DNA of 64,000 bases. It comes from Anaerolineales bacterium. Its GTDB lineage: Bacteria; Chloroflexota; Anaerolineae; Anaerolineales; UBA11579. Positions 2,576-62,330 of this stretch are shown in pieces (within the stretch, counting starts at the first letter, position 1; the number at the start of each line of letters is the position of its first letter). The translations under genes were made by a program, and so were the position numbers. The notes below the pieces were generated by a model, which was given only the letters and a program-made list of their open reading frames with translations, made no database searches and had not been told where the DNA came from. Where the stretch lies: assembly GCA_020059485.1 (NCBI GenBank), contig JAGVCA010000016.1, positions 51,890 through 115,889 on the forward strand. Reading direction: 5' to 3'.

Positions 2576-3829
2576 CTACGCTTCTTCGAGTTCCTTTTCA
2601 AACGCCGCGATGCGCGCCTTAATGCTGCCGGCCAGGTCATAGATCCCTTTTGAGATCGGGTGTGTCCGGTTGTTAATGATAAATGGCACACCGCGGTCCA
2701 TCGCCGGGATCACCAGCCGGTCATCGAATGGCAGCACCGCAACTACCTCAAGCTTCGAAATGTCCGCCAGACGTTCGGGCGTGACAGTTGTGCGGCGTTT
2801 GTCGTACATATTCAGGACCAACAGCACCTTGTTGGTCGGAAAGCCCAACGCAGTCAGCAGATCCAGAAACAGGCGAACGTTCTTGACGGAGGGGATATCC
2901 TGCGTGGTGATCAGAGAGATCAGGTCAGCCTCATCAATGGCGGCCTGGGTGATCTCATCCAGCGTGGAAGCAGTATCCACGATCACATACGCAAACATCC
3001 GCTTCAGAAACAGCAGGATCTTGGAAAACTGCTCCCCGGAGACTGGTTCGGCCTGCTCAGGCCGGGGTGGCGCTGCCAGGATCCGGACGCCGGTATCCTT
3101 GTGTTTGAGCAGTACATCTTCGATGAATTCGGGATCCAGTTCGTCCGCACGCGTGGCAACATCACTGAGGTTATTCTTGATCTGCTCATTGAAAAAGAAC
3201 GAAAGATCGCCGAACTGCACCCGGCCATCCACAACCACCACCGGCGCTTCTTCAGTATGGAGCGCCACGGCCAGGTTGGCGGTGATCGAGGTCGTCCCGA
3301 TCCCGCCCTTGGGGCCAAAAACTGTGATCACCTTGCCGTTGTGGCGGGGCGGGAAATAACCGCCGCTGGCGGTGCCCATGCCGCTGGCCTGGACCGCAGC
3401 CATAGTTTGCGCCGCTTTGCGCTTTTCCTGCTGGGCCATTTCTCCCGCCCGTTTGATCGCTGAGATCAATTCATCCAGATCAGGCGGTTTGGTCAGGAAG
3501 TCCCTGGCACCGGCCAGCATGGCCTTGCGCATGTAGTTCGGGTCACTTTGGACAGACAGGATCACGATCTGGACGCCCGGCATCTTGGATCGGATGCGTT
3601 CGGTCGCCGTGATCCCATCCATATCCGGCATGTTGATATCCATCAAAACCACATCCGGGTTGGTTTCACCGGATACCCGGATGGCTTCGGTCCCAGACCG
3701 GGCTACTCCGATCACCTCGATATTCGCCTCAAACTGGAGCAGCTTGCGGATGTTTTCGCGTGTTTCAGCGATATCGTCGACAATCAGGACATTGATCTTC
3801 TGTGGTTCTGACATTAAATCACTCACCAA
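2576..3829 (-). CDS. Response-regulator receiver domain fused to a CpaE/TadZ-like ParA/MinD ATPase
   Basis: N-terminal REC with DD, LMDINMPDMDG, ILSVQ and LTKP motifs. C-terminal deviant Walker A GPKGGIGTTS. The ORF begins with TTG at 3829; an ATG at 3814 is an alternative start. Confidence 0.85.
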   Translation of the reverse strand: MVSDLMSEPQKINVLIVDDIAETRENIRKLLQFEANIEVIGVARSGTEAIRVSGETNPDVVLMDINMPDMDGITATERIRSKMPGVQIVILSVQSDPNYMRKAMLAGARDFLTKPPDLDELISAIKRAGEMAQQEKRKAAQTMAAVQASGMGTASGGYFPPRHNGKVITVFGPKGGIGTTSITANLAVALHTEEAPVVVVDGRVQFGDLSFFFNEQIKNNLSDVATRADELDPEFIEDVLLKHKDTGVRILAAPPRPEQAEPVSGEQFSKILLFLKRMFAYVIVDTASTLDEITQAAIDEADLISLITTQDIPSVKNVRLFLDLLTALGFPTNKVLLVLNMYDKRRTTVTPERLADISKLEVVAVLPFDDRLVIPAMDRGVPFIINNRTHPISKGIYDLAGSIKARIAAFEKELEEA

Positions 3830-18302: not shown

Positions 18303-18485
18303 ATGGGTATCATCGAAGCGATTGTCGGCCTGATCACCGGGATCATTGCATTGGTCGTCGGGATCGTCGGGGCAGTCCTCGGGATCGTCGGCGGGATCAT
18401 CGGGATCGTGATTGCGGGAGTGGTCTTGCTCCTGGTCATCGGTCTGATCCTGCTCCCGATCTGGATCCTGGCAGCGATCTTTTAG
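18303..18485 (+). CDS. Small Gly/Ile/Val-rich hydrophobic protein (60 aa)
   Basis: RBS GGAGG upstream and followed by an intrinsic terminator. The coding DNA carries reiterated GGGATCGTCGG units. Confidence 0.5.
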   Translation: MGIIEAIVGLITGIIALVVGIVGAVLGIVGGIIGIVIAGVVLLLVIGLILLPIWILAAIF

Positions 18486-18508
18486 TGGCAGCCGACACCA
18501 ACTGAAAT

Positions 18509-18541
18509 GGGCGAGAGATCAATCACTCTCGCCCGTTTTTG
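18509..18541 (+). terminator. Intrinsic terminator
   Basis: GGGCGAGAG-8 nt loop-CTCTCGCCC followed by a T-run. Confidence 0.8.
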
Positions 18542-18630
18542 TTGAGTAAGACCTTAAATTCTAATATCCTCTTTACACACCAAGCGAAAGACCCCCCACC
18601 GAAAAACCATCAGAACGTATAGAGGTTATC

Positions 18631-19122
18631 ATGCCGAAAGTATCACTAAACACACCTGCGCCACAGTTCTGCCTGAATGATTATCGCGGCAACCCGGTTT
18701 CTATTGACGATTTCAGGGATCGTCAGAACGTGCTGCTGGTCTTTAACCGCACCTTCACCTGACCATTCTGCCGCGCGCACATGGCGCAGTTGCGCCAGGA
18801 CCATCCCAAATTCGTCGCCCAGGACACCGTCGTTGTGATCGTTGGCCCGGAGAGCGCTAAAGGCTTCGAGAAGTACTTCACCGAGCACGACCTGCCCTTC
18901 ATTGGCTTGCCAGACCCGACCGCCAGCGTGCTGAAACTGTACGGGCAGGAAGTTAACATCTTCAAACTGGGGCGGATGCCGGCCATGGCGGTACTGGATA
19001 AAGCAGGGATCGTGCGGTTCATCCACTACGGGCACAGCATGAGCGATATCCCGGAGAATGAAGAAGTACTGGAGACCTTGCGGGAGTTAAACCGCGAGCG
19101 GCAATCGTCGGACTCGCGCTAA
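18631..19122 (+). CDS. Peroxiredoxin-like / AhpC-TSA thioredoxin-fold protein with predicted selenocysteine (UGA at 18760-18762)
   Basis: ATG at 18631 with RBS AGAGG. This frame is continuous with track ORF 18781-19122 except for one TGA. The translation reads ...NVLLVFNRTFT-U-PFCRAHM..., which places the TGA at the first position of the redox CxxC/UxxC motif. The read-through product is 163 aa, a typical family size. Confidence 0.6.
18782..18797 (+). promoter_or_regulatory. Candidate bacterial SECIS hairpin core
   Basis: T-GGCGC-AGTT-GCGCC-A begins 22 nt after the TGA. The apical loop contains GU. Confidence 0.4.
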
Positions 19123-19214
19123 AGCCAGGGACAGGGAAAATGTCCTGTCCCCGCAAAACAAGCCCCTCCTTCCCGCGATCCATCATGGGGAGGAGTTTTT
19201 TTCCTTCGCCCGGC

Positions 19215-19243
19215 TTGACATTCTCCCCGCAACCTCGTACACT
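19215..19243 (+). promoter_or_regulatory. Promoter of the leaderless mini-ORF upstream of metG
   Basis: TTGACA (19215-19220), a 17-nt spacer, then TACACT (19238-19243). The ATG lies 7 nt downstream, where the transcription start is expected. Confidence 0.6.
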
Positions 19244-19249
19244 AGTCAC

Positions 19250-19360
19250 ATGGAAACCACACTGTACCTGCTTAACCTGCCAACGATTGCCGCGTTGCTA
19301 CTCTTCAGCATGATGATGATGGGGATGGAAACACGCGTCCGGGCAGCCCGCCGCAGGTAG
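19250..19360 (+). CDS. 36-codon Met-rich mini-ORF (candidate leader peptide, or a small membrane protein)
   Basis: My translation is METTLYLLNLPTIAALLLFSMMMMGMETRVRAARRR. Five of the six codons at 19310-19327 are ATG. Stop TAG at 19358-19360. Not in the track (under 60 aa). Confidence 0.5.
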   Translation: METTLYLLNLPTIAALLLFSMMMMGMETRVRAARRR

Positions 19361-19383
19361 ATCCACCCGTCTGCAAACCAAAA

Positions 19384-19408
19384 CTGCCCGGCCGCCGGGC
19401 AGTTTTTT
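19384..19408 (+). terminator. Intrinsic terminator between the mini-ORF and metG (candidate attenuator)
   Basis: CTGCCCGG-ccg-CCGGGCAG followed by T6. The 3'-arm octamer is duplicated at 19339-19346 inside the mini-ORF. Confidence 0.8.
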
Positions 19409-19466
19409 GTTGTCGAAATCCGGCAACCCAACTACAATACACACGCCATTATCGAGGAGCAGAACC

Positions 19467-21260
19467 ATGACTGAATCCAAACCAAAACACATCCTGGTCG
19501 CCGTTGCCTGGCCGTATGCCAGTTCGGAGATCCATGTCGGCAATATCACCGGCTCGTACCTGCCGGCCGATATCTTCGCCCGCTACAACCGCCTGCAAGG
19601 CAACTATGTCCTGATGGTCTCCGGGTCCGACGCGCACGGGACGCCGATCACCGTAAAATCCGACGCCCTCGGCATCACGCCCGAAGAAGTTTACAAACTT
19701 TACCACGCCGGCTTTCTGGAACTGTTCCAGAAGCTCGGGCTGCATTATGACCTGTTCACCTCCACCCACACCGAGAACCACACCACAGTCGCCCAGAGCA
19801 TCTTCCTGGCGCTCAAGGAGGGCGGCTACCTGTACACCGAGACCCAGAACCAGTGGTTCTCAGAGAGCGAAGGCCGCTTCCTGCCAGACCGCTACGTGGA
19901 GGGGACATGCTACATCTGCGGCTACACGCAGGCGCGCGGCGATCAGTGCGACAATTGCGGCACACTGCTGGACGCCAACGAATTGATCGATCCGCGCTCC
20001 AAGAACGACGGCTCCACCCCGCTGCTCCGGGAAACCGAGCATTTTTACCTCGACCTGGCCAAACTGGAACCGGCTGTGGTCGAATTCCTGGAAGCGCGGC
20101 AGGACCGCATCCGTCAGAATGTGCTGCGCCAGTCGCTCGGTCAGATCAAGGCCAACCCGCTGCGCGGCCGGGCCATCACCCGCGACCTGGATTGGGGTAT
20201 CCCCGTCCCGGTGGAAGGCTGGGAGGGCAAGTGCCTGTATGTCTGGTTCGAGGCTGTCATCGGCTACCTCTCTGCGGCGGTCGAGTGGGCCGCGTTGCAT
20301 GATGACACGGAAGCCTGGCACAACTGGTGGTACAACCCGGAGGCTCGGGCATATTACTTCATCGGCAAGGACAACATCCCCTTCCACGCTGTCATGTGGC
20401 CGGCCCAACTGCACGGCGCGGGTGAATGGTTTGGCAAGATCTTAGAAGAGAAGGACAGCACCCAGCTGACCCTGCCCTACGACGTCCCGGCCAACGAGTT
20501 CCTCAACATGCAGGACCAGAAGATCTCCGGCAGCCGCAACTGGGCTGTCTGGGGGCTGGATTTCCTCTCCCGGTACCAGCCGGACGCCTTGCGCTTCTAC
20601 CTGACCATTAACATGCCCGAGACCAAAGATGCAAACTGGGACTGGGACGATTTCGTCACCCGCAACAACTCCCAACTGGTCGCCACCTGGGGCAACCTGG
20701 TCAATCGGGTGCTCTCTTTTGCCCACAAACACTGGGAGGGGCACATCCCCGTCCCCGGCGATCTGACCAAAGCGGATCAAGCCGTCCTCGCAACAGTCGA
20801 AAATGGCTTCGAATCCATCGGCGAACTTCTGGAGGCGGTCAAACTGCGCGCCGCCCTGATCGCCGTGATTGAACTGGCCTCGGAGGTCAACAAATACCTC
20901 GACGAGACCGCCCCCTGGACCGAGGTCAAGACCGACAAAGCCCGCGCCGGGACAATCATCTACACCGCCATGCAGGCTATCGACCACCTCAAGACGATGT
21001 TTGCGCCCTTCCTGCCGTTCTCCAGCGAGGAACTGCACACGTATCTGGGGTACGACCAGCCGCTGTTCGGCGAACAGTACACCCGGCCGGTCAGCGACGC
21101 CCAGGGCGAGCACACCACCCTGCTCTACCGGCCCGGACAGGCTTCCGGCCGCTGGGCACCAGAGAAATTAGAGCCAGGTAAGGCTTTCCGAAAACCGAGC
21201 CCACTCTACCAGAAACTGGAACCGACCGTGGCTGAGGAAGAACGAAACCGGCTCGGTTAA
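19467..21260 (+). CDS. metG: Methionine--tRNA ligase
   Basis: Class I HIGH-type motif (EIHVGN) and KMSKS-type motif (KISGSRN), with a MetRS zinc knuckle CYICG...CDNCG. The start at 19467 has RBS GAGGAG. The track start at 19407 runs through the terminator T-run. Confidence 0.95.
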   Translation: MTESKPKHILVAVAWPYASSEIHVGNITGSYLPADIFARYNRLQGNYVLMVSGSDAHGTPITVKSDALGITPEEVYKLYHAGFLELFQKLGLHYDLFTSTHTENHTTVAQSIFLALKEGGYLYTETQNQWFSESEGRFLPDRYVEGTCYICGYTQARGDQCDNCGTLLDANELIDPRSKNDGSTPLLRETEHFYLDLAKLEPAVVEFLEARQDRIRQNVLRQSLGQIKANPLRGRAITRDLDWGIPVPVEGWEGKCLYVWFEAVIGYLSAAVEWAALHDDTEAWHNWWYNPEARAYYFIGKDNIPFHAVMWPAQLHGAGEWFGKILEEKDSTQLTLPYDVPANEFLNMQDQKISGSRNWAVWGLDFLSRYQPDALRFYLTINMPETKDANWDWDDFVTRNNSQLVATWGNLVNRVLSFAHKHWEGHIPVPGDLTKADQAVLATVENGFESIGELLEAVKLRAALIAVIELASEVNKYLDETAPWTEVKTDKARAGTIIYTAMQAIDHLKTMFAPFLPFSSEELHTYLGYDQPLFGEQYTRPVSDAQGEHTTLLYRPGQASGRWAPEKLEPGKAFRKPSPLYQKLEPTVAEEERNRLG

Positions 21261-21323
21261 CCCGCAAAAAGATCTTAAGGACCGCAAACGCGGTCCTTTT
21301 TTTGATTTTCTATTACAATACCA

Positions 21324-21911
21324 ATGCACCCGTTTGGAGGATTAACGTTGGTACAACCTGAATTTGGATCTGACACGATCGCCCTGCGACCATTTGAGCC
21401 GGGTGATGCGCCAGGCCTGTACGCTTACCTGACCCATCCAGAGCTAGCCGGACGGCGCTACATCCCCTGGAAATTCGAACAAACCCTGCCTTTCCCGCTC
21501 AAAACTGCCGGAGATATCATCGAGGACTGGAACGGGATGGAGAACGGTTTCTGTTTGGCCGTGACGCTCAAGACCGATGGCAGCCTGATCGGGCACGCCC
21601 GTGCCGGCTGGGGCTGGGACGCCCTCATGCCGGAAGTCGCCGTCGTGATCGCCCCTCCGCACCAGCGGAAAGGTTTCGGCCGGCAGGTCCTCAGCTGGCT
21701 GCTCGACTATCTGTTCGATTTCACCGTCGCCCGCAACGTCTCCAACGGCATTGAGGAGTGGAACGCCCCTGCACTCGCGTTCGCCCAACGGCTGGGTTTC
21801 AGTCAGGCCGGCGTACTGCGCCGCGTTGCATACCGGGGCGGCTGGTTTTACGACGAGCATCTCTACGAGATCCTGAAACCCGAATGGAGGGAGCGCAATC
21901 ATGCCGCTTGA
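21324..21911 (+). CDS. GNAT family N-acetyltransferase
   Basis: 195 aa. It has a RimJ/RimL-like layout, with a QRKGFG acetyl-CoA-binding motif. Confidence 0.8.
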   Translation: MHPFGGLTLVQPEFGSDTIALRPFEPGDAPGLYAYLTHPELAGRRYIPWKFEQTLPFPLKTAGDIIEDWNGMENGFCLAVTLKTDGSLIGHARAGWGWDALMPEVAVVIAPPHQRKGFGRQVLSWLLDYLFDFTVARNVSNGIEEWNAPALAFAQRLGFSQAGVLRRVAYRGGWFYDEHLYEILKPEWRERNHAA

Positions 21912-22467
21912 AGGCCAGAAGATCCGTTTGCGAGAGGTGCGTGAGAGCGACCTGCCCCTGCTGCTGGCCCTGCGCAATGACCTTGAGACCCAGGGCTGGA
22001 GCCAGACCCTGCCCACCGATTACACCCTCAACATGGTCCGCAAGCAGTATGAAGAAGAGACCTTTTCCTTCCAGCGCAACCGGGCGCGTTTCGTGATCGA
22101 GACCATCGACTCCGAGGAAGTGGTCGGGAATATGACTTACTACAGCCTGCGCTCCCGCCACGAGGTTACCATCGGGATCGCCATCGCCCGTCAGTTCTGG
22201 TCCGCCGGGCTGGCCTACGACGCCCAGGAGACCCTGCTGCGCTTTCTGTTCGAGGAACTGGGGGTGCGCGTCGTCCGGCTGTGGACGACCGGGTCGAATG
22301 AGAAAGCCATCGCCCTGGCAGAACGTTCCGGTTTCCAGGTTTCTGCCCGTCTGCGAGAGGCAGTCTTCCGCCGCGGTCAGCTGGCCGACAACGTGATGAT
22401 GGATTTGCTGCGCGAGGAATACTACGCCAGCCATCCCGAAATGGAAGACCATCTGCCCCCGCTATGA
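21901..22467 (+). CDS. GNAT family N-acetyltransferase
   Basis: 188 aa, a paralogous layout to the upstream GNAT, overlapping it by 11 nt. Confidence 0.8.
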   Translation: MPLEGQKIRLREVRESDLPLLLALRNDLETQGWSQTLPTDYTLNMVRKQYEEETFSFQRNRARFVIETIDSEEVVGNMTYYSLRSRHEVTIGIAIARQFWSAGLAYDAQETLLRFLFEELGVRVVRLWTTGSNEKAIALAERSGFQVSARLREAVFRRGQLADNVMMDLLREEYYASHPEMEDHLPPL

Positions 22468-61067: not shown

Positions 61068-61110
61068 CAAAAAAAGCCCCCCGCTGATTTCCCTCTCTTC
61101 AGCGGGGGGC
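61068..61110 (-). terminator. Intrinsic terminator after rsgA
   Basis: Perfect 12-bp stem GCCCCCCGCTGA / TCAGCGGGGGGC with an 11-nt loop and a T-run on the minus strand. Confidence 0.85.
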
Positions 61111-61118
61111 GATTTGGC

Positions 61119-62330
61119 TCATCCCGGCAGGTCTGCCCGTATCTTGAGATACGACTCGTACCGCAGCGGCGAAATCTCCCCCCGCTCCACCGCTGCCTTG
61201 ACGGCACAGTCCGGTTCGTGTTCGTGTGTGCAATCGGAAAAGGCACATTGTCCGAGCAGTTCAGCGAACTCCGGGTAGTAAGCCGAGAGTTCCCTTTTCT
61301 CGAGGAACGCCAGCCCAAACCCCCGGATGCCGGGCGTATCGATCACGGCGCCGCCCTGCGCCAGCGGGTAGAGCGTCGCCAGCGTAGTGGTGTGGCGGCC
61401 CTGGTTGCGGTTGCTGCCGCGCTCGCCCACAGTCAGGGCACGCAGTGCCAATCCGGGCTGGACCTGCGAGAGAAGTGAGGATTTCCCCACCCCCGAAAGC
61501 CCGGCAAACACGGTCACGGCATCCCCCAGCAGTTCCCGCAGCGCGTCGATCCCGACACCGCTCTCGGCGCTGGTCAGCAGCACCTGGTAACCGGCATCTC
61601 GGTATGGCTGCGCCACTTCTTCCAGTTCGGCTGGGTCTTCCACCAGGTCGATCTTGTTGATACAGATGACCGCCTCCAGGCTGCTGCGGGCAGCCGCGAT
61701 CAGATAGCGGTCGATCAGTTCCGGCCAAACGGCCGGCTTGCGCCATGAAGCCACCACCAGCACCCGGTCGACATTCGCCGCCATGATCTGGCGCAGCCCT
61801 TTAGCGCCCTCGTGATGCCGGCGCGCCAGGACGGTTTTACGGGGGAGCACTTTTTCCACCACGCCCTCTCCGGTCCCGGTCCGGGTCACGGCAGCCTGGT
61901 CTCCGGCCACCACCACACTGGTGAATGTGGTCTCCTCGACCAGCAGCGAACGGCGCACCGTGCACTCGATCTCTTCCCCGTCCAGCAGCACGGCGCAGCG
62001 CTCCCCGGCCGCTTCGATCACCAGCGCCTGAGATGTGCCCTCAGGCAGGTCGCTTTCATCCACCGCAGTTGTGTCGCTCGCCTTTTCGATCGACTGGCGG
62101 GCCATCGCTTCCACCACCTTGTGGCGCGATTGGCTCCCCAGCGGCATAACGCGTTCATCCTGGATGAAGCCGGGGGAAGCCCATTCCTCATCCGCCAATT
62201 CTTCCCAGTCGCGCTGGCGCGGTTTGCGCCTGGCCGCGTTGGGCCGCATCCCGCCTTTGCGGGCTTTTTTCAGGCGGTCCTTGCGCTCCTGGATCTGTTG
62301 TCCTTTGTGATATTTTTCCAAGTCAGGCAT
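61119..62330 (-). CDS. rsgA: Ribosome small-subunit-dependent GTPase A with a roughly 100-aa basic N-terminal extension
   Basis: G-motifs NKIDL and GLSGVGKSSL. Zinc knuckle CAFSDCTHEHEPDC. Confidence 0.9.
   Translation of the reverse strand: MPDLEKYHKGQQIQERKDRLKKARKGGMRPNAARRKPRQRDWEELADEEWASPGFIQDERVMPLGSQSRHKVVEAMARQSIEKASDTTAVDESDLPEGTSQALVIEAAGERCAVLLDGEEIECTVRRSLLVEETTFTSVVVAGDQAAVTRTGTGEGVVEKVLPRKTVLARRHHEGAKGLRQIMAANVDRVLVVASWRKPAVWPELIDRYLIAAARSSLEAVICINKIDLVEDPAELEEVAQPYRDAGYQVLLTSAESGVGIDALRELLGDAVTVFAGLSGVGKSSLLSQVQPGLALRALTVGERGSNRNQGRHTTTLATLYPLAQGGAVIDTPGIRGFGLAFLEKRELSAYYPEFAELLGQCAFSDCTHEHEPDCAVKAAVERGEISPLRYESYLKIRADLPG

Follow-up and report, generated by a model that had tools for sequence, protein, structure and literature searches.

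A conserved leader unit upstream of metG in Anaerolineales as a probable Met-codon transcription attenuator

We analysed a stretch of 64,000 nucleotides (nt) from an Anaerolineales bacterium (contig JAGVCA010000016.1; this whole stretch is henceforth the window, and coordinates are positions within it, on the + strand unless marked) and found that metG, the gene for methionyl-tRNA synthetase (MetRS), is directly preceded by a compact leader unit. The unit consists of a strong promoter (P1), a short open reading frame (ORF) with a run of Met codons, and an intrinsic terminator whose 5′ arm can alternatively pair with a segment inside the ORF. We consider it likely that this is a ribosome-mediated Met-codon transcription attenuator, which would adjust metG expression to the supply of Met-tRNA; the start site, the coupling of translation to transcription, the stalling of the ribosome and the response in vivo are the parts of this reading that we infer. 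Taken alone, the window makes a suggestive case of modest significance. Conservation of the arrangement across 17 distinct loci, by contrast, indicates that it is more than a product of chance.

Architecture of the metG leader unit

P1 comprises a −35 hexamer TTGACA (19215-19220) and, after a 17-nt spacer, a −10 hexamer TACACT (19238-19243). An ATG lies 6 nt past the −10 element, at 19250, and transcription from P1 would be expected to start on or beside its A, i.e., to yield a leaderless mRNA. The ORF that begins there (19250-19360) has 36 codons followed by TAG (19358-19360) and encodes METTLYLLNLPTIAALLLFSMMMMGMETRVRAARRR. Five of the six codons at 19310-19327 (ATG ATG ATG ATG GGG ATG) are Met codons, the putative sensing codons of the unit. 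Further along the ORF lies CCGGGCAG (19339-19346; region 2), the predicted 5′ half of the antiterminator, which is identical to the 3′ arm of the terminator. The terminator itself (19384-19408, scored with 12 pairs in the terminator scan) is made of CTGCCCGG (19384-19391; region 3), a ccg loop, CCGGGCAG once more (19395-19402; region 4) and a T6 tract (19403-19408), region 3 being common to the terminator (with region 4) and the antiterminator (with region 2). The leader stop codon falls within an apical hairpin of the antiterminator (19357-19374), which in the window is weak (6 pairs, 2 of them G.U).

Between the terminator and metG, the promoter scan found a second promoter-like element, P2 (TTGTCG-17-TACAAT; 19410-19438). 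The metG Shine-Dalgarno sequence GAGGAG (19454-19459) is kept in most relatives, with variants in the outgroups L134, L003 and L001. The identity of the regulated gene as methionine--tRNA ligase (19467-21260; 597 amino acids) is firm, with 477 bits against a cutoff of 336 for TIGR00398 and E = 1e-135 for PF09334. The first-pass annotation of this DNA, made from its letters alone, had already described P1 and the ATG at 19250, the 36-codon ORF with its five ATG codons and its stop at 19358, the terminator, and the duplication of the 3′-arm octamer at 19339-19346, and we found all of them as it had placed them.

Within the window, these elements are individually not rare. Two promoter-like sites were found in 4 kb, compared with 1.5 expected from shuffles, and are thus not enriched. 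The octamer CCGGGCAG occurs 19 times in the 64 kb, counting both strands, so a same-strand copy within the 111-nt ORF has a chance of about 1-2%; and a copy of the 3′ arm of at least 8 nt, located 10-90 nt upstream, accompanies 2 of the 25 terminator-like hairpins in the window, that of the metG leader included. No second P1-type promoter with an ATG, nor any other ORF with an amino-acid run followed by a terminator, was found elsewhere in the window. As observations in their own right, we note that dinucleotide-preserving shuffles predict 4.9 occurrences of the octamer rather than 19, which may reflect codon or amino-acid usage, and that the sole other case of arm duplication among the 25 hairpins lies at 61075-61190 (−). 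There, a strong terminator (GCCCCCCGCTGA ... TCAGCGGGGGGC followed by T7) stands after the gene at 61119-62330 (−), and 9 nt of its 3′ arm (AGCGGGGGG) recur within the coding sequence, some 60 nt upstream; this duplication is probably due to chance in a G-rich stretch.

Distribution and linkage to metG

The relatives of its MetRS place the window in Anaerolineales (Chloroflexota), and we recovered the 17 distinct copies of the unit from genomes and metagenomes of Anaerolineales/Chloroflexota. Among genome loci that include the region upstream of metG, 6 of 7 carry the unit there. The exception, L004, encodes a MetRS that is 62% identical, is missing the Met leader and has a tRNA-Gln on the opposite strand (positions 2758-2830 (−) of that locus); its positions 2830-3000 hold a different metG 5′ region with an 8-base-pair (bp) hairpin. 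A profile search with the leader peptide, led by a relative of 43 amino acids, returned 15 small ‘hypothetical’ proteins (homologous ORFs encode 33-49 amino acids), and further loci were added from the contigs encoding these homologues. When 1.84 billion representative proteins were searched exhaustively with a profile, only 10 clusters came up, meaning that the family is either small and narrow or seldom called by gene finders.

In every contig that is long enough, the next gene on the same strand encodes MetRS (identified by Pfam, and by tblastn at 83-92% identity). The upstream neighbours, on the other hand, vary widely (AhpC-TSA, Cupin_2, UPF0236 transposase, sigma-70, rve_3 integrase and a hydrolase), so the linkage is specific to metG. 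The unit is so far confined to one clade of Anaerolineales. A DNA-pattern scan of metagenomes (ATGATGATGGRRAT N8-30 YGGGCRG) was uninformative on distribution, as all of the matches listed were unrelated chance loci. Two of the recovered loci, L143 and L142, are identical up to the leader-terminator loop and wholly divergent from about position 1130, probably because of an assembly chimera at the hairpin.

Constraint on the leader ORF and its RNA

Across the 17 loci the leader ORFs span 33-43 codons with conserved start and stop positions, and in every one of them 5-9 codons (14-24%) specify Met, compared with 1.2% in MetRS. All indels in the ORF alignment are in frame, and over the N-terminal 19 codons the proportion of synonymous differences (pS, 0.63) exceeds that of non-synonymous ones (pN, 0.34; pN/pS 0.55), both of which indicate, at the level of sequence, that the leader ORF is coding. 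Specifically, the family retains L5, Y6 and Y9, and Ser20 persists whether it is encoded by AGC or by TCN. The family falls into a ‘METTLY’ and an ‘MSEALY’ subgroup, between which peptide identity is 34-43%, and neither Pfam nor NCBIfam has a match to the peptide. Relatives that keep the ORF without the Met run or the duplicated octamer, which the first-pass annotation had named as the pattern speaking against its proposal, were not seen: all 17 loci retain both the run and a segment complementary to region 3.

The geometry of the unit, which like the masked folding described below was scored on 15 aligned units out of the 17 distinct ones, is nearly constant. The P1 pattern TTGACA-17-TA[C/A]ACT is exact in all units (the −35 hexamer is invariant in the 15 aligned loci and occurs in L145 and L146 too). 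The ATG follows the −10 element by 6 nt in 13 of the 15 scored units, or 15 of 17 overall, and has no Shine-Dalgarno sequence, as would be expected of a leaderless mRNA; the exceptions are L001, with a gap of 9 nt, and L003, with a 25-nt leader containing AAAGG. Downstream, the distance from the last Met of the run to the GGGCAG core of region 2 is 13 nt in 11 of 15 units, that from GGGCAG to the stop codon is 11 nt in 14 of 15, and that from the stop codon to the terminator core is 23-27 nt in 14 of 15.

The potential of 19339-19346 to pair with the 5′ arm of the terminator, first proposed for the window, turned out to be a property of the whole family. Regions 2 and 3 form 7-9 contiguous pairs in all 17 loci, and GGGCAG in region 2 pairs with CUGCCC in region 3 in all 15 aligned loci (17/17 overall); sliding the partner columns by 1-3 positions reduced pairing from 83% to 24-45%. 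Compensatory changes, which the first-pass annotation had suggested looking for, were present at one position, the remaining changes being wobble-only. Specifically, the substitutions seen in region 2 (one C-to-U and two A-to-G) each yield a G.U pair. The pair flanking the 2:3 core is C-G in seven loci, U-A in six, U-G in one and unpaired in one, the last being the window, where the mismatch is offset by two additional C-G pairs at the opposite end of the helix. The same region-3 base faces region 4 as A-U in seven loci, G-C in seven and G-U in one. Three positions, one in each of regions 2, 3 and 4, therefore covary together, with wobble intermediates. The terminator is likewise preserved: all loci have a hairpin followed by T5-T9, 91.9% of the terminator cells are paired, and covariation is found at the 208:228 column pair.

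Codon choice in region 2 provides a separate view of the constraint. The residue before the region-2 Ala alternates between Arg (CGG) and Trp (TGG), a radical change under which pairing is kept. The Ala codon itself is GCA in 12 loci, GCG in two and GUA (GTA) in one, and never GCC or GCU, whereas Ala codons elsewhere in the ORF vary freely. Together, the alternation and the restricted Ala codon argue that region 2 is constrained as RNA and not as peptide.

When the stretch from region 2 to region 3 was folded alone, every one of the 17 loci gave a basal 2:3 helix of 7-10 bp, which in 15 of them (all except L132 and L001) encloses an apical hairpin spanning the stop codon. Predicted energies ranged from −16.5 to −30.4 kcal/mol for the antiterminator and from −11.8 to −19.0 kcal/mol for the terminator, and the prediction favoured the antiterminator over the terminator in 16 of the 17 loci. 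A possible region 1 (CTGCC, 19277-19281) also showed up in the minimum free energy (MFE) structure of the window. It could pair with region 2 for as long as region 3 is still untranscribed; a region-2 partner of this CUGCC-like type, at ORF nt 28-42, exists in the ‘METTLY’ subgroup but not in the ‘MSEALY’ one. The long-range pairs reported by RNAalifold are weak and do not extend to both subgroups, and the covariation that some of them show comes from the same alignment from which the pairs were derived.

Ribosome-dependent switching and proposed mechanism

The first-pass annotation had further predicted that a ribosome stalled on the Met run would give read-through and that a ribosome at the stop codon would give termination. 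Modelling is consistent with this: folding with the ribosome footprint masked (assumed to cover −12 to +15 nt relative to the P site) gave the expected switch, over the nearly constant spacings described above. With the A site on the last Met of the run, the full antiterminator core was present in the MFE structure of the nascent RNA (i.e., before region 4 is made) in 13 of 15 units. Once the ribosome was placed on the stop codon, no unit formed more than 2 of the 6 core pairs (0-2 in all 15), and in the complete transcript the terminator then formed in all 15. With no ribosome at all, the nascent RNA formed the antiterminator in 11 of 15 units, which suggests that a failure of initiation, e.g., when formylmethionyl-tRNA (fMet-tRNA) for the leaderless AUG is scarce, might also give read-through.

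We therefore propose the following mechanism. A transcript from the strong promoter P1 would begin at or beside the AUG of the 36-codon leader ORF. Region 2 (CCGGGCAG) lies 13 nt past the Met run, and the stop codon 11 nt further on; regions 2 and 3 (CTGCCCGG) would together make the antiterminator, with the stop codon in its apical hairpin, or alternatively regions 3 and 4 would make the terminator. When Met-tRNA is plentiful, the ribosome would reach the stop codon, melt the apical hairpin and cover region 2, allowing the terminator to form and ending P1 transcripts at 19408. When Met-tRNA is scarce, the ribosome would stall in the Met run and leave region 2 free, the more stable antiterminator would form, and RNA polymerase would read on into metG, on top of basal transcription from P2. 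More tentatively, poor initiation under fMet-tRNA scarcity would likewise favour read-through.

The last point can be taken further. In a leaderless mRNA the first codon itself needs fMet-tRNA, so both products of MetRS would feed one switch. The unit would then be a two-input sensor and a dual-function gene, in which either failed initiation or a stall in the Met run frees the antiterminator and the peptide is itself active, in the exit tunnel or in trans as a membrane protein. We regard this fuller version as a speculative possibility, with the odds against it.

Weighing the alternatives

Several observations weigh against the attenuator. The covariation stems from few independent events, about 1-3, and shuffle controls of this kind are known to be lenient when sequences are related, making the covariation evidence supportive and not overwhelming. 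The basal helix is short, at 7-9 bp, and region 4 repeats region 2, so that one strand could quickly displace the other. Neither a region 1 nor a pause hairpin is common to both subgroups, and the 2:3 helix is missing from the masked-fold MFE structure in L002 and in L001 (in the latter, the last Met was mis-assigned). The N-terminal half of the peptide is under moderate amino-acid constraint (pN/pS of 0.55, with pS near saturation). The peptide is also hydrophobic and transmembrane-like, with a 19-residue Kyte-Doolittle maximum of at least 1.6 in 13 of 17 loci, and most leader peptides have a basic C-terminus, which bears out a caveat of the first-pass annotation that the product resembles a small transmembrane protein with a basic tail. 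It is thus not a typical passive leader; it may tune stalling from within the exit tunnel or act in its own right, as peTrpL is reported to do (see below).

P2, the other caveat raised for the window, is also borne out. Inspection by eye picked out elements resembling it (TTGTCG/TTTACG-17-TACAAT/TAAAAT) in roughly 10-12 of the 14 loci alignable there, with weaker −35 hexamers in L006 and L137, and most loci thus appear to have kept a canonical P2 between terminator and metG. Where this is so, metG would be independent of read-through and the leader unit could stand alone. In L003 and L001 the scan finds no P2-type promoter. In L003 the T tract lies 45 nt from the metG ATG, and since the scan shows no promoter between the terminator and this essential gene, expression of metG in this locus must come from read-through, an argument for the terminator being conditional. 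Probably, then, metG has a basal promoter of its own in P2, and read-through from the stronger P1 is an inducible addition. Separately, a CGCAAT(T/C)AT(T/C)C motif lies between the P2 −10 element and the metG Shine-Dalgarno sequence in the window (19439-19453, CGCCATTATC) and at the same position in L005, L006, L131, L132, L134, L142 and L144, and might serve as an additional regulatory site on the transcript from P2.

One rival reading is an independent small-protein gene, a self-contained unit of P1, ORF and terminator that makes a Met-rich membrane peptide of about 36 amino acids, with metG transcribed from P2 and no part for the complementarity in metG regulation. The transmembrane-like character and basic C-terminus of the peptide, the preservation of L5, Y6, Y9 and S20 across synonymous and non-synonymous codon families, the conservation of P2 and the strength of the terminator all fit such a gene. 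What it leaves unexplained, however, is why the unit always lies co-oriented and directly 5′ of metG when the genes upstream vary, why region 2 is constrained as RNA and covaries with both terminator arms, why the antiterminator is the stabler structure in 16 of 17 loci, why the spacings between Met run, region 2, stop codon and terminator are fixed, and why L003 shows no promoter after the terminator. We therefore judge it unlikely that the unit is only a small-protein gene; a function of the peptide alongside attenuation is possible. Alternatively, the peptide could be an arrest-peptide sensor whose hydrophobic N-terminus stalls the ribosome at the Met run from within the tunnel, with the same terminator/antiterminator output, the stall being intrinsic or responding to a small molecule (free methionine or S-adenosylmethionine, SAM) instead of to a simple shortage of Met-tRNA. 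Constraint on residues 5-20, which would occupy the tunnel while codons 21-26 are decoded, and conservation of the Ser and Glu flanking the Met run are in line with this. Yet we identified no known arrest motif, the sequence diverges between subgroups to the degree given above, the charging of tRNA is the signal to expect where a synthetase gene is the target, and charging-dependent attenuators are marked by just such a run of 3-4 consecutive cognate codons closely followed by 1-2 others; an arrest peptide thus seems decidedly unlikely.

The unit might, finally, be a non-coding small RNA (sRNA), a riboswitch or a T-box-like leader containing the ORF by accident, and a transcript of about 160 nt with its own promoter, terminator and conserved sequence blocks would look much like one. 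This is very improbable given that all indels are in frame, that start and stop positions are conserved, and that third positions vary while amino acids are kept; the consensus fold, moreover, consists of the terminator and weak long-range pairs only. The codon periodicity and the in-frame indels led us to reject the sRNA reading. Rfam gave no match above chance, either permissively (E ≤ 10, 18500-20000) or at the gathering threshold in the window and 13 related loci. On this basis we also rejected a T-box (RF00230, with no match in either search), the SAM riboswitches, none of whose aptamer covariance models matched in the window or the 13 related loci, and the known leader families, which found no match in the same set.

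Neighbouring features of the window

The leader unit is bracketed by other terminators. Upstream, a terminator-like hairpin (CCCCTCC ... GGGGAGG followed by T7; 19163-19202, predicted free energy −17.4 kcal/mol before the T tract at 19196) would end the upstream gene and insulate P1. Downstream, the terminator scan found a terminator after metG (21277-21305), which makes metG the sole gene in the read-through unit. It is followed by two overlapping genes for GNAT-family acetyltransferases (21324-22467 (+)), a pair also found after metG in L131.

Further upstream, an ORF at 18303-18485 (+) encodes a very hydrophobic, Gly/Ile/Val-rich product of 60 amino acids and is followed by a terminator-like hairpin; ORFs ending ...AIF* also adjoin the leader unit upstream in L001 and L008. 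Between this ORF and the leader unit, two ORF calls of 43 and 113 amino acids (18631-19122 (+)) form one frame broken by an in-frame TGA at 18760-18762 (VFNRTFT*PFCRAHM), and the corresponding frame of L131 (its positions 626-1105) has an in-frame stop at the equivalent place (VFNRGFM*PFCRAHM). The protein matches AhpC-TSA and a SelL-related redox family, and from its sequence it is a candidate selenoprotein with a U-x-x-C motif. Simple folding of the RNA downstream of this UGA was no better than that of shuffles.

Comparison with known systems

Leader-peptide attenuators are textbook knowledge for Trp, His, Phe, Thr, Leu and Ile/Val, and for synthetase genes the known or predicted cases are pheST, trpS, leuS and hisS paralogues. 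In the literature we searched, with many subscription-journal papers outside our reach, we found no Met-codon or metG leader attenuator, no paper on this unit and no leader-peptide attenuator described in Chloroflexota. The metG unit therefore follows a known mechanism, with a logic that a specialist would expect, in an element that is apparently undescribed. If it works as proposed, it would show how a lineage with no T-box at metG ties MetRS synthesis to the supply of Met-tRNA, and it would provide a compact, testable case of a sensing ORF whose initiation depends on the regulated enzyme. The ‘hypothetical’ proteins of 35-49 amino acids would then be re-annotated as leader peptides, and the alignment could be the starting point of a covariance model with which to annotate Anaerolineales genomes.

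The nearest counterpart is pheM-pheST of Escherichia coli, in which a short ORF rich in cognate codons, a 14-codon leader with a Shine-Dalgarno sequence, precedes the synthetase genes. Both systems combine such an ORF with mutually exclusive antiterminator and terminator hairpins that are read by the position of the ribosome. The metG unit differs in sensing Met instead of Phe, in being apparently leaderless and in belonging to Chloroflexota; its leader is longer (33-43 codons), hydrophobic and conserved, its stop codon lies in the apical hairpin of the antiterminator, and an extra conserved promoter follows the terminator. With trpL, hisL, thrL, leuL and pheL it has in common the competition of 2:3 with 3:4 pairing, a run of regulatory codons and an intrinsic terminator; it departs from them in matching no Rfam model, in having no family-wide region 1 and in targeting a synthetase instead of a biosynthetic operon. 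T-boxes upstream of Met-tRNA synthetase genes in Firmicutes bind tRNA directly and work without an ORF. They serve the same goal as the one proposed here, i.e., more read-through into the synthetase gene when tRNA-Met is uncharged, which the metG unit would achieve by means of an ORF, at a locus where no T-box match was found.

Outside Proteobacteria, comparative genomics has likewise pointed to leader-peptide attenuators before synthetase genes, namely those predicted for trpS and leuS in Streptomyces (PMC1262725) and a His leader upstream of hisS paralogues in bacilli (PMC2965389), from which the metG unit differs in amino acid and phylum. For the amino-acid constraint on the metG leader, the peptide peTrpL of Sinorhizobium meliloti offers a precedent, as a leader peptide reported to have an additional function (PMC7298713), although the two share no sequence similarity. 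Leaderless short ORFs with poly-Cys runs in mycobacteria sense their amino acid by ribosome stalling and thereby act on translation, unmasking the sequestered ribosome-binding site of Cys metabolic genes (10.1101/834739; PMC4633059). The metG unit would resemble them in using a cognate-codon run within an apparently leaderless short ORF as an amino-acid sensor. The metG Shine-Dalgarno sequence, however, takes no part in the alternative pairings, so unmasking of a ribosome-binding site does not apply; the output is instead an intrinsic terminator/antiterminator at least 58 nt upstream of the metG start, and the target is a synthetase. Against this background the metG unit has two unusual traits, a sensing ORF whose initiation would depend on the very enzyme that it regulates, and a conserved hydrophobic peptide.

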